Positions 18,843-63,740 of a DNA stretch of 64,000 nucleotides are shown here, piece after piece. Origin of the DNA: a virus (lineage: Duplodnaviria; Caudoviricetes). The position numbers and the translations under genes were made by a program. How positions within the stretch are numbered: the first letter of the stretch is position 1; each line of letters starts with the position of its first letter. The stretch covers positions 1 through 64,000 of IMG/VR virus record IMGVR_UViG_3300032327_000460; one strand, 5' to 3'. The notes under the pieces are model-generated. The model saw only the letters and a program-made list of their open reading frames with translations. It had not been told where the DNA came from and did not search any database.

Positions 18843-19673
18843 TTATGGATTGCTAACTTCTTTTATTATCCAAAAATCATTACTCATTGAAGTGTCCTGT
18901 ATTACACTAAATGGCATATAAAAATAGCCCTTATCTCCCCATCCCGTTCCCCAGCTGTTTCTAACAATATAATGTTGCATTACTGCATCGTATCCTACTA
19001 TTAAAACAGCATGACCACCTAATAATCTTTCTTGTCTTTTATTGGGATATGTCATTATGCCGGTTCTGTTTATTCTATAGAAGCTAGGATAAACATCAAA
19101 GCCAATAATAATTGGATATCCGTTGTTTAATGCATCTATGCATCCATCATGGTTAACTACTCGTTCATATCTAGTTACTTTGCGATTAAGAGCATCATTT
19201 ATTGCCTCAGTTAATGGTCTTTGTTTAAATTTGGATACTATATAAGGCCAAAGTCTTTCAAGTGACGCACCATATCTAGACACAGATTTTATACCATCAC
19301 GAATATAAGCACCACTGTCATAACTTACTGTACCTAACAGTAGACGCTCAAAATAATAGATAAACAATCTACTAATATCACTGTATTTACCATTGCGTTT
19401 GTTCAATAGTTCAATAGCACCTGCAATCGCTTGTCCAGTACAACTGCCTAAACTACCTTGATTTTCAATAGGGGAGCAAAAGTTTCGTAAATCTACTCTA
19501 TTAGATACCCTAGTACCATTTGCTAGATATAAGTAATCTCGATTATCTTTCTTATCACGAATCCATTGGAGATTGTATAGTTTTTGTGTTGTTGGTTTAA
19601 CAACTGTTCCGGTAGGTTTATTAAAGGTATGATCCTCGTTAGTGTTTACTATGGTACGAGGATCTTGTTTCAT
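18843..19673 (-). CDS. Papain-like cysteine protease (C1A)
   Basis: QGSLGSCTG, GGHAV, IVRNSWG..WGDKGY. Confidence 0.92.
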   Translation of the reverse strand: MKQDPRTIVNTNEDHTFNKPTGTVVKPTTQKLYNLQWIRDKKDNRDYLYLANGTRVSNRVDLRNFCSPIENQGSLGSCTGQAIAGAIELLNKRNGKYSDISRLFIYYFERLLLGTVSYDSGAYIRDGIKSVSRYGASLERLWPYIVSKFKQRPLTEAINDALNRKVTRYERVVNHDGCIDALNNGYPIIIGFDVYPSFYRINRTGIMTYPNKRQERLLGGHAVLIVGYDAVMQHYIVRNSWGTGWGDKGYFYMPFSVIQDTSMSNDFWIIKEVSNP

Positions 19674-27000: not shown

Positions 27001-27333
27001 TCAGAATGGGGTAAAACTTGATCCGCACCCGCATGTAGTTTGCGCTTGTGGGTTGTTTATTTTGAATCTTGAACCATTTAAATCATCAATATAATCAATT
27101 TCAGCATTACTTAAGTACTGCATACTCATGCTATCAATCAAGACATTTGTAGTTCCTGATGGAATTTCCCAGTCATCTTCATTTTTTTCTTCATCAAAAG
27201 TGAATCCATATTCCATTCCGGAACAACCCCCACCTTGGACAAAAACTCTAACTCTAGTTTGATCGGATAGACCTTCGTCAGTCAACAATTCAGCCATTTT
27301 TAAGGCTGCTGATTCAGTTATTTTTAAGTTCAT
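27001..27333 (-). CDS. A-type Fe-S carrier (IscA/ErpA/HesB family)
   Basis: GGGCSG..Y, CGCGSSF. Confidence 0.93.
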
Positions 27334-28697: not shown

Positions 28698-29252
28698 TTA
28701 TCTCTTTAAGAAAGGAGAATAAATCTTTTCTAATTCATTGATAGTATGGTTAGTGTTACCATCTTCATGCTTAACTGCAATGCCACCTGCATTACTCCAT
28801 GCATCAAGATATTTACCAAAATCATCTACTAGTACATTAGGTTGTCCACTAGTGGTAGCATATTTATATTTTGCACTTGTAAAAATAGCATTACCACTAG
28901 TACCAGGGTTATGATTATCCAACCACTCTTTTTTACCTTTAATGCTAGCATTACCTTCTATTCTAAGTGGAGCGCTTAATACAGTAAAGGGAATTTTGTT
29001 TTTATGCAACCAAGCAATTATTTGTTGTCCACCATTCAATGGGTCTAAGTCTCTAAAAAACTGATAAACTAATTCGGGACCTGATTTAGCTAGTCGTACT
29101 ATTGCTTCTTCGGGATTAGTAATATGCTTGTAATGCATTACTTTTTCAACTTCAGCCCAACGCCCAAAAAAATCAGCTTGCACCCCATCCATATCCAAAT
29201 ATAGATGGGGCATTTTTTTAGTGGAATCTTCTAGTAAATCTTTAATTTGCAT
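28698..29252 (-). CDS. HAD 5'(3')-deoxyribonucleotidase
   Basis: YLDMDGV.ADF..VLVDD. Confidence 0.85.
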   Translation of the reverse strand: MQIKDLLEDSTKKMPHLYLDMDGVQADFFGRWAEVEKVMHYKHITNPEEAIVRLAKSGPELVYQFFRDLDPLNGGQQIIAWLHKNKIPFTVLSAPLRIEGNASIKGKKEWLDNHNPGTSGNAIFTSAKYKYATTSGQPNVLVDDFGKYLDAWSNAGGIAVKHEDGNTNHTINELEKIYSPFLKR

Positions 29253-29258
29253 GCCTTA

Positions 29259-29795
29259 TTATATCACAATTGGCATAATAAGCCAAATGCCCTGGGTCAA
29301 TAGTATTGTTCCAAAAATGCTAACGCCAATACTTCCCCAAAACATGCGTTTATCTACAGCCAAAATACTAGCAGATAATAATACAATAGCTAACTGAAAT
29401 GCCATTGCAGCAAAAGTCAACCATGGAGTGTGCTTTTTAGCCTCATCTCGTTCTGCTTCAATTTTTAATGCTTTAGCCATTAATTCTTTTTTACCCTCGC
29501 CCTTAACTGGATCGCTCTCATATCGTTCAATTTTAGCTTTTAGTTGTTCTTTACGACTTGGATCTTTGGCATCTTCAAGTTGTCCCTCAGCAATACTTTG
29601 CTTGATACTTTTAGCTTGATAGAAATTCCATGTGTCATTTGCTTTAATTGTGTTGTTTAATATTTTGCTACTGAATCCATTGGCCATATATGTTGTAATT
29701 GCTAACAATAATGCAATAACTGTGATGACCCACCCTGCTCTATCTTTAAGTTGTGCTTCACGCTCACTGCGTGATAATGGTTTAACTTCTGACAT
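29259..29795 (-). CDS. DUF4337-like membrane protein
   Basis: TM, NDTWNFYQAKSIKQ, coiled coil, two TMs. Confidence 0.75.
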   Translation of the reverse strand: MSEVKPLSRSEREAQLKDRAGWVITVIALLLAITTYMANGFSSKILNNTIKANDTWNFYQAKSIKQSIAEGQLEDAKDPSRKEQLKAKIERYESDPVKGEGKKELMAKALKIEAERDEAKKHTPWLTFAAMAFQLAIVLLSASILAVDKRMFWGSIGVSIFGTILLTQGIWLIMPIVI

Positions 29796-29809
29796 AATTC
29801 TATCTCCTT

Positions 29810-30505
29810 CTAATTATTTATATTAAACTCTTTAATTGCTGCCTTTGCCAAACTGTCTATGCTGTTAACTAATGGAATATTTTTATAATGCGTTTCTTTA
29901 ACTGCTAAAGGTAATTCGGTACAACCCAGTACCACAGCATTGACTCCCCATTTTATTAATCTTTCTATTACAATTATTAAAAGATCATGTGCGTCTTCAA
30001 TATTATTGACCTTGATCAAATCAATTGCCGGTTGCACAAGGGTGTCCATTTCATGTGTGTTGGGAGTTACACATCTCCATCCTTTACCACCTAAATAATG
30101 TTGATATAGTCCCAAACTCATTGTGGCCTTTGTGCCTAGTATGCCTATAGTACCATGGTGTATGTTCAGTGATTTTAATTCTGTTGCAACGCTGTCAACA
30201 ATGTGTGTTATCGGTACTCCAAACTGACTCATTCTATCATACCAAAAGTGTGCTGTATTACATGGAATTACAATATGATCGCACCCTGCGTCTTTTAATC
30301 CCAGTATACCCTGTTTGAGTTTTTCCCATGGCAAATCATCACGGTTTATTAAACTGGTACTACGATCGGGTACAGTAGGGTCGCCCCAGATAACTACTGG
30401 AATGTGTTCTTGGTCACAACTTGCGGGTGTTTGTTCTACTAGGCGCTTATAAAATTCAGCAGTTGCTGCTGGGCCCATGCCGCCAAGTACCCCTAACTTT
30501 TTCAT
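29810..30505 (-). CDS. PLP-independent Asp/Glu racemase
   Basis: GVLGGMGPAAT, PCNTAH and GCTELP (both catalytic Cys present). Confidence 0.93.
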   Translation of the reverse strand: MKKLGVLGGMGPAATAEFYKRLVEQTPASCDQEHIPVVIWGDPTVPDRSTSLINRDDLPWEKLKQGILGLKDAGCDHIVIPCNTAHFWYDRMSQFGVPITHIVDSVATELKSLNIHHGTIGILGTKATMSLGLYQHYLGGKGWRCVTPNTHEMDTLVQPAIDLIKVNNIEDAHDLLIIVIERLIKWGVNAVVLGCTELPLAVKETHYKNIPLVNSIDSLAKAAIKEFNINN

Positions 30506-31104
30506 TTTTTAAATAATAAACTAGAAGCAATAACCATAGCAGTTTGTGCAGCCTCTACATCTTCGGGTTTTTCTTTCCAACCTATACTAATTTGTCCAAT
30601 GAATACACCGGGCTCTGCTGGAACACTGATACGACACATGTAGTTTACTCCATGTTCTTTATATACAAAACCTATAAGACTTTGCGGTTTAGTATATGGA
30701 CTACAAGGTATCTTACCAGACATCAAACCAATCACATCGTTATTGTTATCATAGTTTTTACTAAACAATCCAACATCTAATCCGTCATTTCTTTTATCTC
30801 TTCCACCACTGCGAGTAGATAAGTAAACTACCTTGCGTGTGTTGATCAGTGTATTAACTTCTAAAAACGCAACCATCTCAGCATCAGTATTCTTTAATAA
30901 GAAGTTTAATGCTTCTTCATAATTGCCATTCATCTTAGGCAATGCTTGTTGAGCACGATAACTTGCCATAAATGCATCTTTTTCACTATAAACTATCCAA
31001 CCACCAAAGCCCAAAATACAAAGAAACACAACAGTGAATAGACGAAATGGACTAGATCCAATCCAGTTTAATAAACCAAAGAGAAAATCTTTAATCTTGT
31101 CCAT
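30502..31104 (-). CDS. T4 gpT-like holin homolog (single TM + periplasmic domain)
   Basis: DFLFGLLN..TM..NYM-x13-G-x-I-x3-W with the same spacing as in T4 gpT as recalled from memory. Confidence 0.55.
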   Translation of the reverse strand: MDKIKDFLFGLLNWIGSSPFRLFTVVFLCILGFGGWIVYSEKDAFMASYRAQQALPKMNGNYEEALNFLLKNTDAEMVAFLEVNTLINTRKVVYLSTRSGGRDKRNDGLDVGLFSKNYDNNNDVIGLMSGKIPCSPYTKPQSLIGFVYKEHGVNYMCRISVPAEPGVFIGQISIGWKEKPEDVEAAQTAMVIASSLLFKK

Positions 31105-32365
31105 TTTTTTGTTCTTTCTCACATACAAATGCTGTTACTGCTACATTGCCATGTACATGACTTGCTGTACGAATCATGTCCATTAATGGATCAACTGCAA
31201 TCAACAACACTAATACTGCTTCGCTTGGGAGTTTTAATAAATCACAAACAACTGCTACTGTAGCAACAGTAAGAATACCTGTTGTGCCTGCGCTAGCTAA
31301 ACCAGCTAAGATACTACCAAACAGTACAACTAATAATCCTGCAACACCTAAAGGGGTGTCATAGATGTTAGCAATGAATACTGTAGCGATAGCATAATAC
31401 ACAATACTACCAATACGGTTAACCGTGAAACTTAGTGGAACTGTCAATTCAACTGCGTCTTTATTGAATTTTAATTTTTGTAGTGCTTCTTGAGCATATG
31501 GAATACAAGCAAGGCTGCTTCGTGAACTAACAGCAACAATCAATGTTTCTTTAGTTTCACGGATAACTGTAGATAAACTTAATCCACTACGCATCCAAAT
31601 TACAGCAGTACCTGTTGCGATGACTAGGAATCCACCAATTGCTTGTTGCATTACAAAGTCAAACATAGTCATAAAAATTCCTACACCAACTTTACCTACC
31701 TGTGCAGAAATCATTGCTAACAATGCTATTGGTAAGAAGTAATTTAAGAACTTGAAAATACTGATACTGGCCTGTTGAACACTTTTTAACACTTCAACTA
31801 ACATTTTTTGACCATCTGTTTTCAAGTGACCAAGGGCAACACCAAAGATTAAACAGAAGATAACAATCTTTAAACTTTCACCATTGTTTAATGTATTGAA
31901 AATATTTTCAGGAATAAACTTCTCAGCCATTTTACCAGCACTAACTGGGGCGGCTGTTGGCATCGGCTCTTTAAGAGTGATGTTTAAATCTGTGCCACTG
32001 TCTTTGTCATTAATTAGTACACCTAACTGTGTTTTTTTCTCCGGTGTCATTTCAGTGCCAGTAACCATAACTGTACCAACACCAATGACTGCGGCAATAA
32101 ACATACTACTTACAAAACCAATGATGATTCTACGAATTAATGTTTGACTACCCTCTTTTTGTAATAATCCAATGATACCTACTAGGATAGTTGCTAACAA
32201 GAATGGTAGTACAACTACTTTAAGTAAACTAATATAGACGCTACCTAAACTTTCAAAGTTTAAACTAAACTCCGGTAAGTAAACTCCACTGAGAATACCT
32301 ACAACGATTGATCCTAAAATAGTCCAGGGACTAACTAAAAAACTTTTTAAATGTGCGATTGTCAT
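31091..32365 (-). CDS. Dicarboxylate/amino acid:cation symporter (DAACS, GltP-like)
   Basis: many TMs, IPENIF, SSRSSLACIP, AVD.LMDM.RT..HV.GN. Confidence 0.92.
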   Translation of the reverse strand: MTIAHLKSFLVSPWTILGSIVVGILSGVYLPEFSLNFESLGSVYISLLKVVVLPFLLATILVGIIGLLQKEGSQTLIRRIIIGFVSSMFIAAVIGVGTVMVTGTEMTPEKKTQLGVLINDKDSGTDLNITLKEPMPTAAPVSAGKMAEKFIPENIFNTLNNGESLKIVIFCLIFGVALGHLKTDGQKMLVEVLKSVQQASISIFKFLNYFLPIALLAMISAQVGKVGVGIFMTMFDFVMQQAIGGFLVIATGTAVIWMRSGLSLSTVIRETKETLIVAVSSRSSLACIPYAQEALQKLKFNKDAVELTVPLSFTVNRIGSIVYYAIATVFIANIYDTPLGVAGLLVVLFGSILAGLASAGTTGILTVATVAVVCDLLKLPSEAVLVLLIAVDPLMDMIRTASHVHGNVAVTAFVCEKEQKNGQD

Positions 32366-32374
32366 GGTTAGTCC

Positions 32375-33193
32375 TTACTTCTTTTCTGCTTTGTAACGAT
32401 CCATTAACTTTTTAGTGTCAATGTTGCTGTATTCATTTTTAATAACATAATTAACAACGCTTAACAGTTGAATCGACTTTGGATTGACTGCTACTGCAAT
32501 ATTGTCTACGCTATCACTGATTGTAATTGTCTTAGTGCTAATTGCGGCATCTGGTTTTTCAAAACTAATTTTCTTAATTTCAAATTCATCACGATACGCG
32601 GCAGCAATATCTCCGCGGGTAACTTTATCAATGATTGTGTCCCATTTGTCTTCAGGAAGAAATATAGCATTAGGAAAGTTAATACGGGCAAATGTATCGT
32701 AACTAGAATTACGAATAAAACTTATTTTACCATTAAACTCTCTTATAACTTGATATACTTCGCGACCTTGACTATTTTGACTTAACCATAGTCGGTTAAC
32801 AATCAAACTTTGTCTAAGTTTGACATAAGGGTCGCTGAATCTAACAACTTGTAATCTAGGACCAGTAACAGATAATTTACTAACTGCAATGTCTGCACGA
32901 CCATCACGAACTTGTTCTACAACTTCGGCAAAACTTTCCGCATCTCGTCTAAATTGTACAGGAACTCCAAGTAATACACCAATTCGTCGGGCAATTTCAA
33001 CGTCAAGACCACGGATATCATCTTCCTCTCCGCTGTAGAAGGGAGGACTATCTTTTTTGGTCATTGCTACAACAAGAACATTGTTTTTCTTGATTAGAGC
33101 AATATCAGAGGGTAGGGGTACCGTAGAGGTTGGTAATTGTGCGTTAGCAACCGAGGTCAACAGTACAAAAAATAATAGTAGTAGTTTTTTCAT
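32375..33193 (-). CDS. Periplasmic amino-acid-binding protein (SBP family 3)
   Basis: signal peptide, GLDVEIAR, DIAVS.LS.T..R...V.FSDPY. Confidence 0.9.
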   Translation of the reverse strand: MKKLLLLFFVLLTSVANAQLPTSTVPLPSDIALIKKNNVLVVAMTKKDSPPFYSGEEDDIRGLDVEIARRIGVLLGVPVQFRRDAESFAEVVEQVRDGRADIAVSKLSVTGPRLQVVRFSDPYVKLRQSLIVNRLWLSQNSQGREVYQVIREFNGKISFIRNSSYDTFARINFPNAIFLPEDKWDTIIDKVTRGDIAAAYRDEFEIKKISFEKPDAAISTKTITISDSVDNIAVAVNPKSIQLLSVVNYVIKNEYSNIDTKKLMDRYKAEKK

Positions 33194-33255
33194 AGTATTG
33201 TATTTATACTATTATTTAAATAGCATAGTTACAATACTGTTACATTTACCCAAAT

Positions 33256-33876
33256 TTACTTGTTGGCCAGTGGATTATCTATGGCTTTTTGTATTTTGTT
33301 ATCAACTTCTTTCTTTAATGTTTCTACTTCACGGTTGATTTCTCTACGGGCCGATGTAAATTCACTGTTAATCTCTTTGCGTGTTGTTTCCATATCCTTA
33401 CGAATTTGATTGGCTTCGTTTCTCGCTCTTTCCAAATCTTCACGAATTGCCTTACGCATGTCACGCATTTCTTGCTCAGTTTCACGCTGTGCAGATTTAA
33501 CACTACGCTCAACTTGCTCGGTCACAGACTCATTACGGCGTAAGTCGTTTTTTAAATCCGTTTTGATATCACGGGTGTAGTCGCTAGTTTTTGCACTATT
33601 TTCTTCGATAACTGCTAGTCGTTTGTCGAATCCACTTAGGTCCGGAGCACTATAATCGGCAATCTTTTTCTTCATGCTTTGATAATCTTTGTATACTTCA
33701 AACGCACCATACAATCCACCTAGTGTAGATGATACGATTGTAGCAGCCACCATTAGTTTGGCAGGTGTAAATTCATAGCCACCAATACTGATAACAGTAT
33801 CTTTGCTAGCATACTTCTTCATAGCCGCTTCTGCTTCGTCAATCTTTGCGTTGACATCTTTAATTTGTTCACTCAT
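33256..33876 (-). CDS. Membrane-anchored coiled-coil protein
   Basis: single TM followed by long heptad-rich region. Confidence 0.7.
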   Translation of the reverse strand: MSEQIKDVNAKIDEAEAAMKKYASKDTVISIGGYEFTPAKLMVAATIVSSTLGGLYGAFEVYKDYQSMKKKIADYSAPDLSGFDKRLAVIEENSAKTSDYTRDIKTDLKNDLRRNESVTEQVERSVKSAQRETEQEMRDMRKAIREDLERARNEANQIRKDMETTRKEINSEFTSARREINREVETLKKEVDNKIQKAIDNPLANK

Positions 33877-37921: not shown

Positions 37922-38668
37922 TTGGATAGAAGAATGCTTAGAATTTTTATATTATCATGTCTCTTGCACTTTGGAGCACATGCACAAGTAGTACCACTTA
38001 CCGCACAATCTTGGTTAGTAGCCGATAGTAACGGTAAAATATTAGATGGTAATAAAACTACCGATATTCGCAGTATAGCAAGTATTACTAAACTAATGAC
38101 AGTTATGGTTGTGTTAGATGCAGAACAAAATCTAGATGAGGTTATTTCTACTAAACTTTATAATAAAAAATTATCTAGAAGGGAACTGATTAGCCTTGCT
38201 ATAATCAAATCAGATAATCAAGCCGCAACTATTTTATGTCAAAAATATACAACAGGACTAAGCGGATGCATTCATGCAATGAATGACAAAGCCAAGTCGC
38301 TGGAAATGTATGATACAAAATATCTTGAACCCACTGGATTAAGTGTGTTTAATGTTAGTACCGCAGAAGATTTAGTTAAACTTGTAATTGCCGCAAGCAA
38401 GTATCAAATTATAAATGAAGATAGTAATAAAGATATTATCAAAATGGCAATTAATAAAAAGAAAACTGCACTATTTCACAACACTAATAGTTTAGTTGGA
38501 CATGGTCATAGATTTATTGTTAGTAAAACCGGATGGATCAATAAGAGCGGTGGCTGTATCGTAATGATGTTAACCACTGAACGTGGTATACGAACAGTGA
38601 TTTTATTGGGTAGCAAGAATACAAAGACTCGTATTCCTGAAGCTAAAATGATTGCACTAGCTTATTAA
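37922..38668 (+). CDS. D-Ala-D-Ala carboxy/endopeptidase (peptidase S11, PBP5/PBP7-like)
   Basis: SITK (SxxK), SDN, KTG. Confidence 0.92.
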   Translation: MDRRMLRIFILSCLLHFGAHAQVVPLTAQSWLVADSNGKILDGNKTTDIRSIASITKLMTVMVVLDAEQNLDEVISTKLYNKKLSRRELISLAIIKSDNQAATILCQKYTTGLSGCIHAMNDKAKSLEMYDTKYLEPTGLSVFNVSTAEDLVKLVIAASKYQIINEDSNKDIIKMAINKKKTALFHNTNSLVGHGHRFIVSKTGWINKSGGCIVMMLTTERGIRTVILLGSKNTKTRIPEAKMIALAY

Positions 38669-38947: not shown

Positions 38948-39135
38948 AATATAAAATTAATGTAATCAGGTTCAGTTTCAAAATAGAAATCATATAACCC
39001 ACCATCCTGTCCGGCGGGTACTAGACAGTCATACCCCCAATCATTATCACAGTTTCTAGTACACCATTCAATGACTGGTTTTAATTGACCGTAGCCAATT
39101 ATTATTTCAGTTTTGTACTGTGTATCTGGTGACAC
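38935..39135 (-). CDS. Hypothetical protein
   Basis: ORF in a coupled run. Confidence 0.6.
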   Translation of the reverse strand: MSPDTQYKTEIIIGYGQLKPVIEWCTRNCDNDWGYDCLVPAGQDGGLYDFYFETEPDYINFILWKK

Positions 39136-39607
39136 TCACGCCGCCCTTTTCTAAGAATTCTATACCAGCATCATCTTTATATGTGTCACGGTAAAATATA
39201 CTTTTAATACCTGATTGAAAGATTGCCTTAGCACAATGAATACACGGAGCAGTTGTTACAAATAATGTAGCACTCTCGCTAGATTCTGTACTACCAGACA
39301 CCTTAGAAATGGCGTTCATCTCCGCGTGAAGGACCTCATCTTTAGTAACTAACCTATACCTGCGATTACTTTCAACTATAGGATCATATTCCTCTAGAGG
39401 GTATAATTGTCCATTCCAATTGTCTCCGGGCATGTATTCTTTATATTCACATTCGTTGGTCCACCCTGTTGGCATACCGTTGTAACCATAACTAAGAATA
39501 CGATTCTCTTTTACAATCACAGCCCCTACTTGCCTACGAATTGCAGTAGATAGCTTGCTGGTACGTTCCGCAACGTCCATATAATAGTCAATAAATTTTT
39601 GTTTCAT
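39107..39607 (-). CDS. dCMP deaminase
   Basis: GYNG, HAEMNA, PCIHC. Confidence 0.93.
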   Translation of the reverse strand: MKQKFIDYYMDVAERTSKLSTAIRRQVGAVIVKENRILSYGYNGMPTGWTNECEYKEYMPGDNWNGQLYPLEEYDPIVESNRRYRLVTKDEVLHAEMNAISKVSGSTESSESATLFVTTAPCIHCAKAIFQSGIKSIFYRDTYKDDAGIEFLEKGGVSVTRYTVQN

Positions 39608-43887: not shown

Positions 43888-45306
43888 TTACTTTTTAGGT
43901 GCAAATTTCTTCAATTGGGATGTAGTGAATTTTTGTGCAAGATAGACACCCCGAGTTCCATTTCGAACAAATTGAATGCCTGTTAAGGTAGTATCAGTTT
44001 TAGATACCGGAATAATTGCACCCACTTGATTATTAATCAATAATTGAGGAAACATAGTTTTGCCTTCAACCAAAGTAAATTTACCAGTACCATCATTTAT
44101 AAAAAATGTTGTACCCCAATTTTCTTCCTTAGTAGAAAAATAATGACCGATAATATCCATTTTACCATCTGAATTAATATCATATGGAATCAAATTAAAA
44201 TAATATCTATAACCAAAGTTATTGGATAATGATTGATCAGTTAATGAAAACTTATATCCATCATTATTAATTAATACTGAAAAGGCAGAATCTTCAGATG
44301 TTGTATTATTCGGAGGTGTTGATACTATGTGAGTATGTACTGAAAAAATATCCGGTTTTCCGTCATTATTTAAATCAACTGATATTGAATTTACCTCACT
44401 ACTGTGAATTATCTGGGTAGACCTGAGATTAGGAAAGTCAAATCCACCTTGTCCAAATGGTCCTGCAGGCAATGTATTAAGTGTATTGATATCTAGACCA
44501 TTTTTTGAACCATAAACTATGGCATGATTTCTACCAGTCCAATTACCACTGATTAATAAATCATCATATCCATCATTATTAAAATCCCTATTAATCATTG
44601 ATGTTTGTTTTTCTAAACTATTCTTTACCCATGTGCTTATAGGGTTGGGTGAAGTTTGAACCCCGTTGGTAAATGATAACAGCATAGAAGTGCCCGGAAC
44701 TACATTGCTTGCTTGTGCGGGCAATAATACTTTTGTAACACCGGTGCCATCAAAATTACCTACAGCAATTGCATAGGATCTAGATGTATTATCAGGTAAT
44801 TGATTAGTGATATTGGTAAATGTATTACCGTTGTTTATTGCCACACCGATTTTTGAACCAGTCCAGGGTGGTTCATCTAATCCAGCTTCGGCAGCAATGA
44901 TATCTTTTTTACCATCACCATTAATATCCACATAATGTATCCATGGTGAGTGCATAACAGTAGGTGCACCATTGGGGAAATATTGATTAGTTAAATCCAA
45001 TGAACCTGATTGATCGCCTAATACCGATAAAGGAATGGGTACTTGTGGATATGAAGTTACGGATAAAACAAATTCATTTTTACCGTCATTGTTTAAGTCT
45101 GCCAATTCACCGGATCTAAGATAATAAGCATTGTTAGCCCCATAAATGCTATAGTCAAATAATGATCTAGTAGAAGTAACAACATCATTAATAAACGGTG
45201 AAGTATCAACAACATTATCTGATGGCGAAGTAGTGCCACCTCCACCGCCACATCCAGTAATTAATACTGAGATGGCAATATATATGGCTCTTAATTTATA
45301 GGTCAT
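43888..45306 (-). CDS. FG-GAP/VCBS repeat lipoprotein
   Basis: lipobox ITGC; about six D-x-N-x-D-G repeats. Confidence 0.85.
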   Translation of the reverse strand: MTYKLRAIYIAISVLITGCGGGGGTTSPSDNVVDTSPFINDVVTSTRSLFDYSIYGANNAYYLRSGELADLNNDGKNEFVLSVTSYPQVPIPLSVLGDQSGSLDLTNQYFPNGAPTVMHSPWIHYVDINGDGKKDIIAAEAGLDEPPWTGSKIGVAINNGNTFTNITNQLPDNTSRSYAIAVGNFDGTGVTKVLLPAQASNVVPGTSMLLSFTNGVQTSPNPISTWVKNSLEKQTSMINRDFNNDGYDDLLISGNWTGRNHAIVYGSKNGLDINTLNTLPAGPFGQGGFDFPNLRSTQIIHSSEVNSISVDLNNDGKPDIFSVHTHIVSTPPNNTTSEDSAFSVLINNDGYKFSLTDQSLSNNFGYRYYFNLIPYDINSDGKMDIIGHYFSTKEENWGTTFFINDGTGKFTLVEGKTMFPQLLINNQVGAIIPVSKTDTTLTGIQFVRNGTRGVYLAQKFTTSQLKKFAPKK

Positions 45307-54191: not shown

Positions 54192-54407
54192 TCAATATTC
54201 TTTTTTGGGGAGACTTTGATCACGTAAGTATTTCTGCCAGCGTCTTTTTGCCTGGCTTTTTGCAAGTTTGCGCTGGACAGTGGGCTTGACAAACTGTTGT
54301 CTGTCACGCACTTCCTGCAGTAACCCGGAATCAGCAATTTTCTTTTTAAATTTTCTTAATGCTTTTTCTAGGTTGCCGTCTTGCAATAATACTTTTCTAC
54401 CACTCAT
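54192..54407 (-). CDS. rpsU: Ribosomal protein bS21
   Basis: LEKALRKFKK..GLLQEVR.RQ.FVKPT..RK. Confidence 0.93.
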   Translation of the reverse strand: MSGRKVLLQDGNLEKALRKFKKKIADSGLLQEVRDRQQFVKPTVQRKLAKSQAKRRWQKYLRDQSLPKKEY

Positions 54408-55606
54408 ATTAACGATTTTGGCTCCAAAACTAAATCTCTATTTATATTTATCTCAGTAACATTATTTTCACGATACTTTTTAGTGTTAAACATATGTGGC
54501 ATCAATGTTCTTTCAATTTCGGTATGAAGTCCTCGTGCACCAGTTTTTAACCTTAGACAATTTTCTGCTAACTGATCCAGTGCGCCATCATCGAAATCTA
54601 ACACAATATCATCTAAACTGAGCAAATACTTATATTGGTCAATGTAGTTGTTCTTAACTTCTGTAAGAACCTTAAGAAGTTCTTCTTTAGTCAAATCACT
54701 TACACTTACTGTAGTAGTGAAACGTCCGATGAATTCAGGAATCATACCAAATCGCACTAAGTCATCGGGAGATACATTAGTCAATGCTGACTCTTTATGA
54801 TTGTCTTTAATTTCTGCACCAAAGCCAATGCTTGTACCATTCTCACGGTTGTTGATAATTTCTTTTAATCCAACAAACGCACCACCTGCAATGAACAGAA
54901 TGTCTTTTGTATTAATCTCAAGCATATCGCCGCCGGGGTGTTTGCGCCCACCACTTGCCGGGATACGACATACCGTACCCTCAACTAATTTAAGTAGTGC
55001 TTGTTGAACGCCCTCACCTGACACATCACGTGTGATACTAGCACTCTCACCTCGACGGGCAATTTTATCAATCTCGTCAACGAATACAATGCCACGCTCT
55101 GCTAGTTTAGGATCGCCGCCGGCGGCATTGACCAGCATATTAATCATTGATTCAACATCATCACCTACATAACCTGCTTCAGTGATACTCGTAGCATCTG
55201 CAACAACAAAGGGGACTTCTAAGTATTTTGCTACGGTCTTGGCAAGCAATGTTTTACCACTGCCGGTAGGACCAATCAATAATACATTACCCTTAGAGAT
55301 TTCTAAGTCTTTTGGTGGTTTGTTAATACGTTTATAGTGATTAGCAATAGCTACGCTCAATACACTTTTAGCACTATCTTGACCAATAATATGCTGGTCT
55401 AAGAATTCTTTGATTGATTCAGGGTCGTATGAGGAAGTATGTGCTTTGGAGTCTAACTTAACAATCTCATCGTCAGTCATTAATTTACCACATAAGTCCA
55501 CACACTCATTACAAATTGCCACATCTTCGCTGACAATTAGTTTTTTAACTTTATCTTTGTGTTTACTGCAAAAGGTGCAATGATTTAATTTAGTTTCTGT
55601 TGACAT
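54404..55606 (-). CDS. clpX: ATP-dependent Clp protease ATP-binding subunit
   Basis: C4 Zn finger, GPTGSGKT, DEIDK, IGF loop, TGARGL. Confidence 0.97.
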   Translation of the reverse strand: MSTETKLNHCTFCSKHKDKVKKLIVSEDVAICNECVDLCGKLMTDDEIVKLDSKAHTSSYDPESIKEFLDQHIIGQDSAKSVLSVAIANHYKRINKPPKDLEISKGNVLLIGPTGSGKTLLAKTVAKYLEVPFVVADATSITEAGYVGDDVESMINMLVNAAGGDPKLAERGIVFVDEIDKIARRGESASITRDVSGEGVQQALLKLVEGTVCRIPASGGRKHPGGDMLEINTKDILFIAGGAFVGLKEIINNRENGTSIGFGAEIKDNHKESALTNVSPDDLVRFGMIPEFIGRFTTTVSVSDLTKEELLKVLTEVKNNYIDQYKYLLSLDDIVLDFDDGALDQLAENCLRLKTGARGLHTEIERTLMPHMFNTKKYRENNVTEININRDLVLEPKSLI

Positions 55607-62390: not shown

Positions 62391-63740
62391 TTATTTATCT
62401 TCTCTGAATGTTTTGAATCTCGGGAATCGCAATGAATAACTACCATCTTGGTTTCGGGTTATGGCGTCCGCTAAAACGACAGCAGTCTGACCAATAACAC
62501 TATTTTTGTCATCCCAATATGCTTGCCGTTCTTCATCCGTATAACCTGAACCAACATTGACTGTTATATGCTTACCATCGTCAACACCCTCGCAAACAAG
62601 GGCGCCCATACGACCAATATTCTTGCCAGTACCTTCTTCAACACCAATAACTGTCAAATCATAATCATAGACGGGTTTATATTTCATCCACGAGGTACTT
62701 CGTTTACATTCATAAGGTGCATCAGTTGCTTTTACCATTACACCTTCAAATCCGTCAGCAACCATATCTTTGCAATACCGATTGAATTGATCCTTGCCGG
62801 CAGCGGTGTCAAGGTCAACCATAATGTGCGGCAATAGTTCAACATTAGGCATATTGTGAATCACAGGACGCATGTTATCAAGCAGTGCAATTCGCCTACG
62901 CAGTTGAGCATTCCAGTGACCACGCCTAAAGTCTTGTAGTGGGATAACATCAAAGATATTAAACACACTGTCATCGGCTTGCACATCACTCTTGCGGCGC
63001 GCCTGTCGCATCAGTTCTTGGAATGTATTGCCGATTACCTCACCATCTAATACAAAACCTTCCATAAGACTACGACCTTGATCTACCCCTGCACATGCAC
63101 GAACCAATGTCAAAAAGTTGTTGCGAATCTGTTCTTCGATGTGACCAAAGTTGTCAAACTGTTTGCCGTTGCGACTAAAACAAATGACAGTAATTTCTCC
63201 GTCATCACTAGGAATAACCATGAACAATGCACGAACACCATCTAATTTAGGCTCAAGGCGCTTAGTGCCCTTCATTTCAGGACGACCTTCACTGTTAGTT
63301 GCAAGTTGACAACCAAAGATTGGAATCTCGTAATCAGTACCTTTACAAATTTTGTTGATTGTTTTATCACTAATGCCTGCCCGCATGTCTCTACGCAATA
63401 CAGGAGCACAGAATGTATTCCATTCTTCACTGTCAAAACGCTCTGCCATTTCTTGAATAGCATCACGTGCGGCATGACCTGTCAATCTACGTTGACTAAG
63501 TTGTAGCAGTAGTTCATTGAATTCAGTCCAGGGATTTTCTGCATCAGTGATACCTACTGTATCAGTAATCTGTTTGACACCAAATGTCACGTATGGATTA
63601 TAGCAGGCTTTGAGAAAACCCAAAAACACTTGACTGTTTGTGCTACCGAGGACACTTGCTTCTAGTGCTTGTTTGATAACATCTTCCTTATGCAGGCGGC
63701 TATCTGATTCATTTAATTTTCTTACCCACGATGCTGACAT
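62391..63740 (-). CDS. ATP-dependent DNA ligase
   Basis: EPKLDGVR, LDGEV, EGVMVK, K.KP, SLRFPRF. Confidence 0.96.
   Translation of the reverse strand: MSASWVRKLNESDSRLHKEDVIKQALEASVLGSTNSQVFLGFLKACYNPYVTFGVKQITDTVGITDAENPWTEFNELLLQLSQRRLTGHAARDAIQEMAERFDSEEWNTFCAPVLRRDMRAGISDKTINKICKGTDYEIPIFGCQLATNSEGRPEMKGTKRLEPKLDGVRALFMVIPSDDGEITVICFSRNGKQFDNFGHIEEQIRNNFLTLVRACAGVDQGRSLMEGFVLDGEVIGNTFQELMRQARRKSDVQADDSVFNIFDVIPLQDFRRGHWNAQLRRRIALLDNMRPVIHNMPNVELLPHIMVDLDTAAGKDQFNRYCKDMVADGFEGVMVKATDAPYECKRSTSWMKYKPVYDYDLTVIGVEEGTGKNIGRMGALVCEGVDDGKHITVNVGSGYTDEERQAYWDDKNSVIGQTAVVLADAITRNQDGSYSLRFPRFKTFREDK

Follow-up and report, generated by a model that had tools for sequence, protein, structure and literature searches.

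A bacterial-type binding protein and carrier encoded with a putative T4-T-type holin in a conserved jumbo phage cassette

The DNA analyzed here (the window) is the 64,000-nucleotide stretch that forms the first 64 kb of the 72.4-kb IMG/VR viral record IMGVR_UViG_3300032327_000460, a record estimated to be 21% complete. Its minus strand carries a compact set of genes, here called the cassette, for a secreted solute-binding protein (SBP), a carrier of the DAACS/SDF family, a 200-residue holin-like membrane protein and a two-cysteine racemase. With roughly even confidence, we read the cassette as a bacterial SBP-assisted module for acidic amino acids that was captured by a phage and is expressed together with a phage holin of the T4 T type. 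In the literature searched, neither this phage cassette nor a pairing of an SBP_bac_3 protein with a DAACS carrier was described; TAXI-GltS (PMC12344293) comes closest among published cases.

The cassette and its conservation among related phages

A first-pass annotation of the window, made from the sequence without database searches, had described a minus-strand run of binding protein, carrier, holin-like gene, racemase and DUF4337 gene. Gene calls, Pfam matches and the overlaps between the genes all agree with this description. The five genes are the following.

32375-33193, minus strand: secreted periplasmic binding protein, SBP_bac_3, 272 residues (Pfam, 64.9 bits)
31091-32365, minus strand: DAACS/SDF carrier, 424 residues (Pfam SDF, 225.8 bits)
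30502-31104, minus strand: T4-T-type holin-like protein, 200 residues (fold and architecture; no Pfam family)
29810-30505, minus strand: two-Cys Asp/Glu racemase (Asp_Glu_race), independent of pyridoxal phosphate, 231 residues (Pfam, 137.5 bits)
29259-29795, minus strand: DUF4337 membrane protein (Pfam, 113.4 bits)

The SBP and carrier genes are separated by a 9-nt gap in which an AAGGA Shine-Dalgarno sequence can be read. A 14-nt overlap joins the carrier stop codon to the ATG of the 200-residue gene, this gene in turn overlaps the racemase gene in an ATGA, and a 14-nt gap with an AAGGAG Shine-Dalgarno sequence separates the racemase gene from the DUF4337 gene. Public gene calls start the holin-like gene at the ATG at 31104, giving 200 residues; the upstream TTG at 31128 would give 208.

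A search of IMG/VR with the carrier as query recovered 37 related contigs. Five of these are 262-353 kb long, and the four that were searched further are 95-100% complete at 330-353 kb. Large terminase was present in all four near-complete relatives and direct terminal repeats in one, and the window itself encodes six tRNAs, tail-fibre-like proteins, ClpX and an ATP-dependent ligase. The concern raised with the first-pass annotation, that the DNA might be bacterial or chimeric, is answered by these near-complete relatives: the source is part of a jumbo phage of about 350 kb, belonging to a family of giant freshwater phages. A DNA search of GenBank phages with the cassette gave no match.

Each of the 33 related viral contigs spanning the region has the order SBP > carrier > 200-residue gene, and the overlap between the carrier and the 200-residue gene did not vary across these loci, so that the tight coupling noticed in the window proved to be conserved. 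The gap between SBP and carrier genes was 2-30 nt in the relatives, with the exception of three identical loci in which it was 234 nt. The racemase gene mostly followed directly after the holin-like gene, and 1-2 kb of unrelated glycine-rich open reading frames (ORFs) intervened in three relatives. All four genes are under purifying selection, with ratios of nonsynonymous to synonymous substitution (dN/dS) of 0.03-0.22, values for which dS was near saturation, and saturated in several comparisons; the ratio was 0.04-0.10 for the SBP and 0.03-0.10 for the carrier. The racemase evolves faster (dN 0.17-0.39 versus 0.05-0.19 for the other cassette genes), a divergence that may reflect relaxed constraint or an exchange of alleles between phages. 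The invariant core of the cassette is SBP > carrier > holin-like gene, to which the racemase is more loosely attached.

Further variation was seen at the racemase end. Identity of the racemase to its phage relatives was 55-77%, compared with 85-93% for the SBP and carrier. The intervening glycine-rich ORFs have GSGWxIGPGW-like starts (L018:9890-11583, L019:6197-7241 and L033:6721-8856; L numbers denote individual loci). In about half of the related phages, a gene for a hydrophobic micropeptide of about 20 residues (MRLP..., one transmembrane [TM] helix) lies between the holin-like gene and the racemase gene, flanked on both sides by ATGA-type overlaps (for example, L001:9863-9925, L013, L020 and L003). 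This gene is absent from the window at 30502-30508, where the stop codon of the holin-like gene overlaps the racemase ATG directly.

Bacterial counterparts, predicted ligand and racemase type

Bacterial relatives were sampled from one class, as 401 genomes of Alphaproteobacteria. SBP homologues at E <= 1e-25 (E 1e-26 to 1e-53) were found in 17 of these genomes, matches far better than that to any solved ABC-type SBP (best E 1.7e-14), and a carrier homologue was adjacent to the SBP homologue in 9 of 15 loci. A carrier search of the same genomes yielded 30 loci that split cleanly into 13 canonical carriers, defined by NM[DGAS]GT with N..GD or as DctA-type, and 17 divergent carriers, in which the motif is absent and arginine mostly stands at the methionine position. 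With longer flanks read, an SBP gene was present within 3 kb of 16 of the 17 divergent carriers, as against none of the 13 canonical carriers (Fisher p = 1.2e-7). In a maximum-likelihood tree the canonical carriers formed one clade (support 100/99), and the phage carriers (100/100) were sister to the carriers of genomes G005 and G151 (97/98), which also supplied the best SBP matches and whose loci contain a racemase. Judged by these sequence relationships, the SBP/carrier pair of the phages is bacterial in origin; it did not arise as a novelty of the phages, since bacteria have the pair repeatedly, with carriers of a subgroup that lacks the sodium site.

The hallmark of an SBP-dependent secondary transporter, an SBP gene that is coupled to a carrier gene and stays so, was found in all phage contigs as well as with those 16 divergent bacterial carriers, and no ABC permease or ATPase gene is present among the cassette genes. 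TAXI-GltS of Bordetella pertussis and the TRAP and TTT systems likewise lack ABC components and have an SBP gene in the same orientation as, and tightly coupled to, the gene of an elevator-type secondary carrier of an acidic amino acid (PMC12344293). However, the phage SBP belongs to family 3 (PF00497) rather than to DctP, TAXI or TctC, and the carrier is of the DAACS/SDF family (PF00375) rather than DctQM, TctAB or GltS. The phage carrier also lacks the sodium-site residues of its family, and no fusion proteins are known. The pairing would extend an emerging theme in which binding proteins serve elevator-type carriers.

The carrier matched the SDF model over residues 14-414, with a score (225.8 bits) well beyond the cut-off of 27.9, and its best solved relatives are aspartate/glutamate transporters. 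The S-S-R-S-S motif of helical hairpin 1 (HP1) and the TM8 motif D-x3-D-M-x-R-T (D-P-L-M-D-M-I-R-T) align with those of a solved aspartate transporter and are constant in the phage relatives; in GltPh-type carriers the residues of both motifs hold the acidic amino acid. The cation (sodium) site, made up in GltPh of NMDGT, N401 and D405, is altered, with NRIGS in place of NMDGT, His for N401 and Asn for D405. Arginine at the methionine position of NMDGT is kept in at least 90% of phage and bacterial SBP-linked carriers.

The SBP carries an N-terminal Sec-type signal peptide with ANA|Q at its end and, by comparison with solved amino-acid SBPs, retains the S-x-T-x-x-R and R-D-E ligand motifs. Among its ligand residues, T91 and R94 are invariant across phage and bacterial relatives, and D183 and E184 are conserved in at least 90%. 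The carboxylate-binding arginine and amino-binding aspartate motifs of the SBP, TM8 of the carrier and the type of the racemase together suggest an acidic alpha-amino acid as the ligand class, with aspartate, glutamate and cysteate as possible candidates.

Both catalytic cysteines of the racemase, C82 and C195, are invariant in the phage relatives. The enzyme scored 218 bits on the CuyB cysteate racemase model (NCBIfam NF052483; cut-off 190) and 166 bits on the aspartate racemase model (TIGR00035; cut-off 93). Four diverse phage racemases scored 213-220 bits on NF052483 and the bacterial racemase at locus L189 scored 264; at this locus an SBP homologue (40%, E 3e-49) and then a carrier homologue (35%, E 2e-72) are convergent with the racemase gene. 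The nearest solved structures are aspartate racemases, and the nearest cellular relatives (41-54% identity) come mostly from Acetobacteraceae and other Alphaproteobacteria, with some from Burkholderiales. Having passed both family models, the racemase appears to be of the aspartate/cysteate (CuyB-like) type and not MurI. The original label of two-Cys Asp/Glu racemase holds for the two cysteines; for the substrate it was too narrow, since the CuyB score means that Asp and Glu are not the sole candidates.

With every phage racemase tested above the CuyB cut-off (213-220 bits versus 190), the cassette might serve to scavenge sulfonate, by import of L-cysteate, racemization to D-cysteate and cleavage by a host CuyA. 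This is the pathway of Bilophila wadsworthia, whose cuy locus (SDF carrier, CuyB, RidA and CuyA) also places an SDF carrier beside a CuyB-type two-Cys racemase (PMC11193023). The phages, however, have no CuyA or RidA, have an added SBP and holin, and encode a carrier of a divergent subgroup. No PALP/CuyA gene was found in five phage records, including the four near-complete genomes, and no gene of the D-cysteine-desulfhydrase family (TIGR01275) was found in the module-bearing genomes G005, G151 and G402, which may be incomplete. We consider sulfonate scavenging improbable, and cysteate breakdown was set aside as the principal explanation, there being no CuyA/PALP gene in the phages or in the three module-bearing bacteria.

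In nine bacterial loci the pair is joined by a membrane protein of 700-760 residues with dCache_1, HAMP and class III nucleotide (adenylate/guanylate) cyclase domains. These domains were detected by Pfam in two loci, the proteins of the others match those two at E 1e-63 to 1e-172, and for the one at L189 the assignment came from its position and an alignment. Seven genomes (G402, G404, G288, G035, G345, G215 and G134, the last cut by a contig end) have the order SBP > cyclase > carrier, and in G005 and G151 the cyclase gene lies beside the racemase gene. The dCache domain of five of seven cyclases contains the string [YF]-x4-R-x-W-[YF], which we take to be an amino-acid-sensing dCache motif. 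A racemase-family gene was present within 3 kb in four bacterial loci, and seven loci have the SBP/carrier pair without a nearby cyclase. No dCache-cyclase is encoded by the phages, and no homologue of the holin-like protein was found in the bacterial SBP/carrier loci. The alphaproteobacterial set of SBP, dCache-cyclase and carrier, sometimes with a racemase, may be an undescribed unit for amino-acid sensing and transport; it suggests a branch of the glutamate-transporter family that works with an SBP, and often with a cyclase sensor, of which the literature searched holds no description. Coordinates of such loci are L223:7152-12324, L257-L262, L215:7832-13077 and L189:5764-10913.

The 200-residue membrane protein

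The family of the 200-residue protein comprises 106 clusters at 50% identity, nearly all of about 200 residues. An AlphaFold2 (AF2) model based on the family alignment, with a predicted local distance difference test score (pLDDT) of 96, has helices at residues 2-16 and 19-40, the latter a TM helix, followed by an alpha/beta domain at residues 57-200. In the model the protein has the architecture of the T4 holin, with a short N-terminal part, one TM helix and a large C-terminal domain predicted to be periplasmic. Two cysteines are conserved in the C-terminal domain (C134, invariant, and C157, in at least 90% of the family), which fits an exported domain.

When the model was compared with 1000 chains by VIA-align, the top three were all T4 holin T (6px4_B, Z 13.2; 6psk_T, Z 12.8; 6pxe_B, Z 12.8). 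In the alignment with 6px4_B, residues 57-200 were matched to 77-217, C-terminus to C-terminus, with a root-mean-square deviation of 3.2 over 132 residues. Generic GAF domains followed within 1 Z unit, so that T is not clearly separated from them. Foldseek also placed the periplasmic domain of T4 holin T on top, and some of the BFVD matches bear the names holin, class III holin or T holin. The link to T4 T rests on fold and architecture because sequence models do not connect the two proteins: the 200-residue protein had no Pfam match at E 0.01, PF11031 (Phage_holin_T) was absent from the genome of the window, from two near-complete relatives and from two phages with family members, and a search of PDB sequences with the family profile did not recover T4 T.

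The genomic surroundings of distant family members are consistent with a role in lysis. Members of about 30% identity in freshwater phages of 30-70 kb are encoded 1-4 genes upstream of a Phage_lysozyme, GH19 or Peptidase_M15_3 gene, and in the 34-kb phage MW202825 the family member lies three genes upstream of the lysozyme gene. Endolysins of changing type behind a constant membrane protein form the pattern expected of a holin. The diverse family alignment was too divergent for a locus scan, and one distant member yielded no viral loci. The identification as a gpT-like holin that was proposed in the first-pass annotation is supported by an architecture and fold resembling T4 T and by the endolysin genes that adjoin the family in other phages, and a T-type holin is the probable identity of the 200-residue protein.

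The comparison with T4 extends to gene context. Like the class III holin T (PF11031; 6PSK, 6PX4 and 6PXE), which acts with the secreted antiholin RI (PMC11413866), the phage protein falls in a length range of about 200-218 residues and combines, in the model, a short cytoplasmic N-terminus and a single TM helix with a GAF-like alpha/beta domain of some 145 residues in the periplasm. Its gene lies apart from the candidate endolysin gene, as t does from e in T4, and in both cases a secreted periplasmic protein is encoded nearby. In contrast to T, the phage protein has no detectable sequence membership in the family, its cysteine pair stands at other positions, its gene is embedded in a transporter operon, and no RI-like gene was recognized.

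Sharing its gene overlap with the carrier, the protein could instead be a membrane-anchored periplasmic accessory or regulatory subunit of the carrier, of GAF type. Such a subunit would account for the failure to match Phage_holin_T, for the tie between T4 T and many generic GAF domains and for the lack of an adjacent endolysin gene in the jumbo phages. However, an accessory subunit has no counterpart in the bacterial SBP/carrier loci, small phages that lack the carrier encode members 1-4 genes upstream of three types of endolysin, and size and topology match those of T4 T (PMC11413866). We give the subunit explanation little weight relative to a T-type holin.

Three of the four near-complete jumbo genomes contain a single copy of the holin-like gene. 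The only recognizable wall hydrolase in all four is a Hydrolase_2 (SleB-like) protein, encoded 17-147 kb from the holin-like gene, which is a candidate for the phage endolysin. The near-complete relative G004 has a second copy of the holin-like gene, of 244 residues (G004:C1:301802-302398; L263:4671-5405), at a great distance from the cassette and beside a GroEL-type chaperonin gene; no lysis gene was found among those of its neighbours that Pfam could name.

Expression, possible function and surrounding genes

Two features lie immediately upstream of the SBP gene.

33201-33208, minus strand: TATAAATA box, 7 nt before the SBP ATG; candidate T4-late-type promoter
33194-33238, minus strand: two-tier hairpin that ends at the SBP ATG and contains the TATAAATA box

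The first-pass annotation had noticed a leaderless late promoter here, and a TATAAATA box does lie 7 nt upstream of the SBP start; it makes the SBP transcript a candidate for a leaderless or near-leaderless mRNA and, by analogy with T4, suggests late expression of the cassette. A TAAATA box upstream of the SBP gene is retained in most relatives, although the flanks differ. The complete octamer was not enriched in the window (7 found versus 9.1 expected) and was discarded as a window-wide signal; the enriched element is the start-proximal TAAATA hexamer only. TAAATA occurs at -20 to -1 of the ATG in 18 of the 112 genes of the 72-kb contig, against a background of 0.7%. In these genes the hexamer ends 1-5 nt ahead of the ATG and there is no Shine-Dalgarno sequence, and other genes of the contig have AGGA or GGAG. 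This division suggests that genes with TAAATA-type starts are expressed from T4-late-like promoters, as transcripts with little or no leader. Examples of genes with the box are at window positions 183, 5717, 27333, 33193, 37585 and 52223.

The hairpin had been reported as a 9-bp hairpin. It is real and larger than that, consisting of two stacked 9-bp stems (minimum free energy -17.6 kcal/mol, z -3.0), and none of 200 shuffled sequences folded as well. Because it is not conserved in the phage relatives, it is probably not essential, and it was rejected as a conserved regulator.

In the mechanism that we propose, a phage holin gene would have been inserted into the captured module and translationally coupled to the carrier gene, and the operon would be transcribed from the T4-late-type TATAAATA box. 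In the periplasm the secreted SBP would bind one of the acidic alpha-amino acids aspartate, glutamate and cysteate, in one or the other enantiomer, and pass it to the carrier, which would depend on the SBP or be regulated by it, in parallel with TRAP, TTT and TAXI-GltS. In the cytoplasm the racemase would equilibrate D and L forms and so render both enantiomers usable by the infected cell, and the benefit would be carbon and nitrogen of the aspartate family, from either enantiomer, for building a 350-kb genome. The holin, made in step with the carrier, would later open the membrane for the endolysin, possibly the SleB-like hydrolase; in a simpler version, translational coupling merely sets the rate of holin synthesis. 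We infer the docking of SBP and carrier, the direction of transport and of racemization, and the link between uptake and lysis. Even as an auxiliary metabolic cassette only, the set would be unusual, in that the phage itself would supply both high-affinity capture and a racemase.

Several points weigh against import for nutrition. An acidic ligand is not established by the SBP sequence, as its nearest solved relatives bind basic or neutral amino acids. Because the carrier has no sodium-coupling residues, concentrative import may be beyond it, and exchange, export or a part in sensing could be its role instead. In some bacterial members of the subgroup the TM8 arginine is lost, which a regulatory role fits better than transport does, and by analogy the sensor cyclase in nine bacterial loci points to signaling and not to nutrition. 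Nutrition alone does not account for the invariant coupling of holin and carrier genes, for the lost sodium sites of the carrier or for the bacterial sensor cyclase; these three features together leave room for a gating of the holin by SBP and carrier.

In that alternative, SBP and carrier would be co-sensors that contact the holin's GAF-like domain or its TM helix, and the nutrient or D-amino-acid state would delay or advance holin triggering, as an analogue of RI/T and of DctB/DctA/DctS. Signaling from SBP_bac_3 proteins to dCache-like receptors is known from ScrB/ScrC (PMC8050422), and DAACS carriers form sensor units such as DctA/DcuS and DctS/DctB/DctA (PMC6978683), so that both kinds of protein are known co-sensors for Cache-type sensors. 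The bacterial relatives, like DctA/DcuS of Escherichia coli, DctS/DctB/DctA of Bacillus subtilis, ScrB/ScrC and GlnH/GlnX, join a DAACS carrier and an SBP to a Cache-type membrane sensor. They differ from these units in an output that is a class III nucleotide cyclase rather than a histidine kinase and in an SBP of family 3, and the phages have a holin-like protein while the sensor is absent. In the phages, which have no cyclase, the holin occupies the place of the fourth partner that the cyclase takes in the nine bacterial loci, between SBP and carrier in seven of them. The invariance of SBP > carrier > holin with a looser racemase, the loss of sodium-site residues, the secreted and soluble nature of the SBP, which it shares with RI (PMC11413866), and the presence of only this T-type holin gene in three of the four near-complete genomes all favor gating as well.

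On the other side, the argument for gated lysis is one of gene order only, and the GAF-like and dCache folds are unrelated, so that no interface can have been inherited. Unrelated late genes are tightly packed in phages, the phages compared are fairly close kin (carriers 77-93% identical), and the seven bacterial pairs without a nearby cyclase indicate that the pair can work without a sensor. We hold gated lysis to be possible but unlikely. The bacterial sensor-cyclase context makes the earlier suggestion of lysis timing through the periplasmic domain of the holin somewhat more plausible by analogy; it is unlikely that the phage went as far as rewiring a bacterial sensing unit of SBP, DAACS co-sensor and membrane receptor, with the holin replacing the dCache-cyclase receptor and the moment of lysis depending on how much of an acidic (perhaps D-) amino acid is in the periplasm or is transported.

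Holin timing decides burst size, and its environmental inputs are little known outside the lysis inhibition of T4 and N4. A holin gene locked to an SBP and a carrier across a lineage of abundant freshwater jumbo phages offers a concrete system in which nutrient-dependent lysis could be looked for; if the holin has indeed replaced the receptor, the system would resemble T4 lysis inhibition with a nutrient as the gate.

Two neighbouring genes outside the cassette bear on its limits.

37922-38668, plus strand: S11 D,D-peptidase (PBP7-like, secreted), with SxxK, SxN and KTG motifs and a signal peptide
33256-33876, minus strand: 206-residue protein that combines a single TM helix with a long, charged coiled coil

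The first-pass annotation had linked the cassette to peptidoglycan, with late scavenging of Asp/Glu and a remodeling or weakening of the wall by D-Asp or D-Glu together with the S11 peptidase. This is very improbable: the racemase is intact and the peptidase, also intact and secreted, lies 4.7 kb from the cassette in the window and directly upstream of it in two relatives, but it was within 8 kb in only 2 of 37 relatives, the cassette showed no D-amino-acid ligase or Mur-type gene, the racemase, a cytoplasmic enzyme, belongs to the Asp/cysteate type rather than to MurI, and the scanned neighbours of the bacterial module relatives include no wall-synthesis genes.

Given the gene neighbourhoods of the relatives, neither the S11 peptidase nor DUF4337 was kept as a member of the module. 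The peptidase was correctly described as intact and about 5 kb away, but it is not a fixed part of the module. The DUF4337 gene, which had been counted as the last gene of the run, turns up elsewhere in the relatives and in both orientations, or has no copy within 8 kb; in the window it has its own AAGGAG, with TATAAATA 20 nt upstream. In the two relatives with the peptidase upstream of the cassette (L006:5704-6402 and L037:4210-4905), the S11 homologue is 51% identical and DUF4337 lies between on the other strand. A spanin role for the 206-residue protein was unsupported, there being no embedded or adjacent lipoprotein ORF, and the Atlas gives phage hypotheticals only. The protein is 82-90% conserved and is usually encoded within 2-4 kb of the cassette, in variable orientation.

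The window also encodes the following proteins, the first six of which are host-like; the gene for the last adjoins the DUF4337 gene.

27001-27333, minus strand: IscA-type Fe-S assembly protein
39107-39607, minus strand: dCMP deaminase
18843-19673, minus strand: papain-family protease
43888-45306, minus strand: FG-GAP repeat protein
54404-55606, minus strand: ClpX
62391-63740, minus strand: ATP-dependent DNA ligase
28698-29252: NT5C deoxyribonucleotidase

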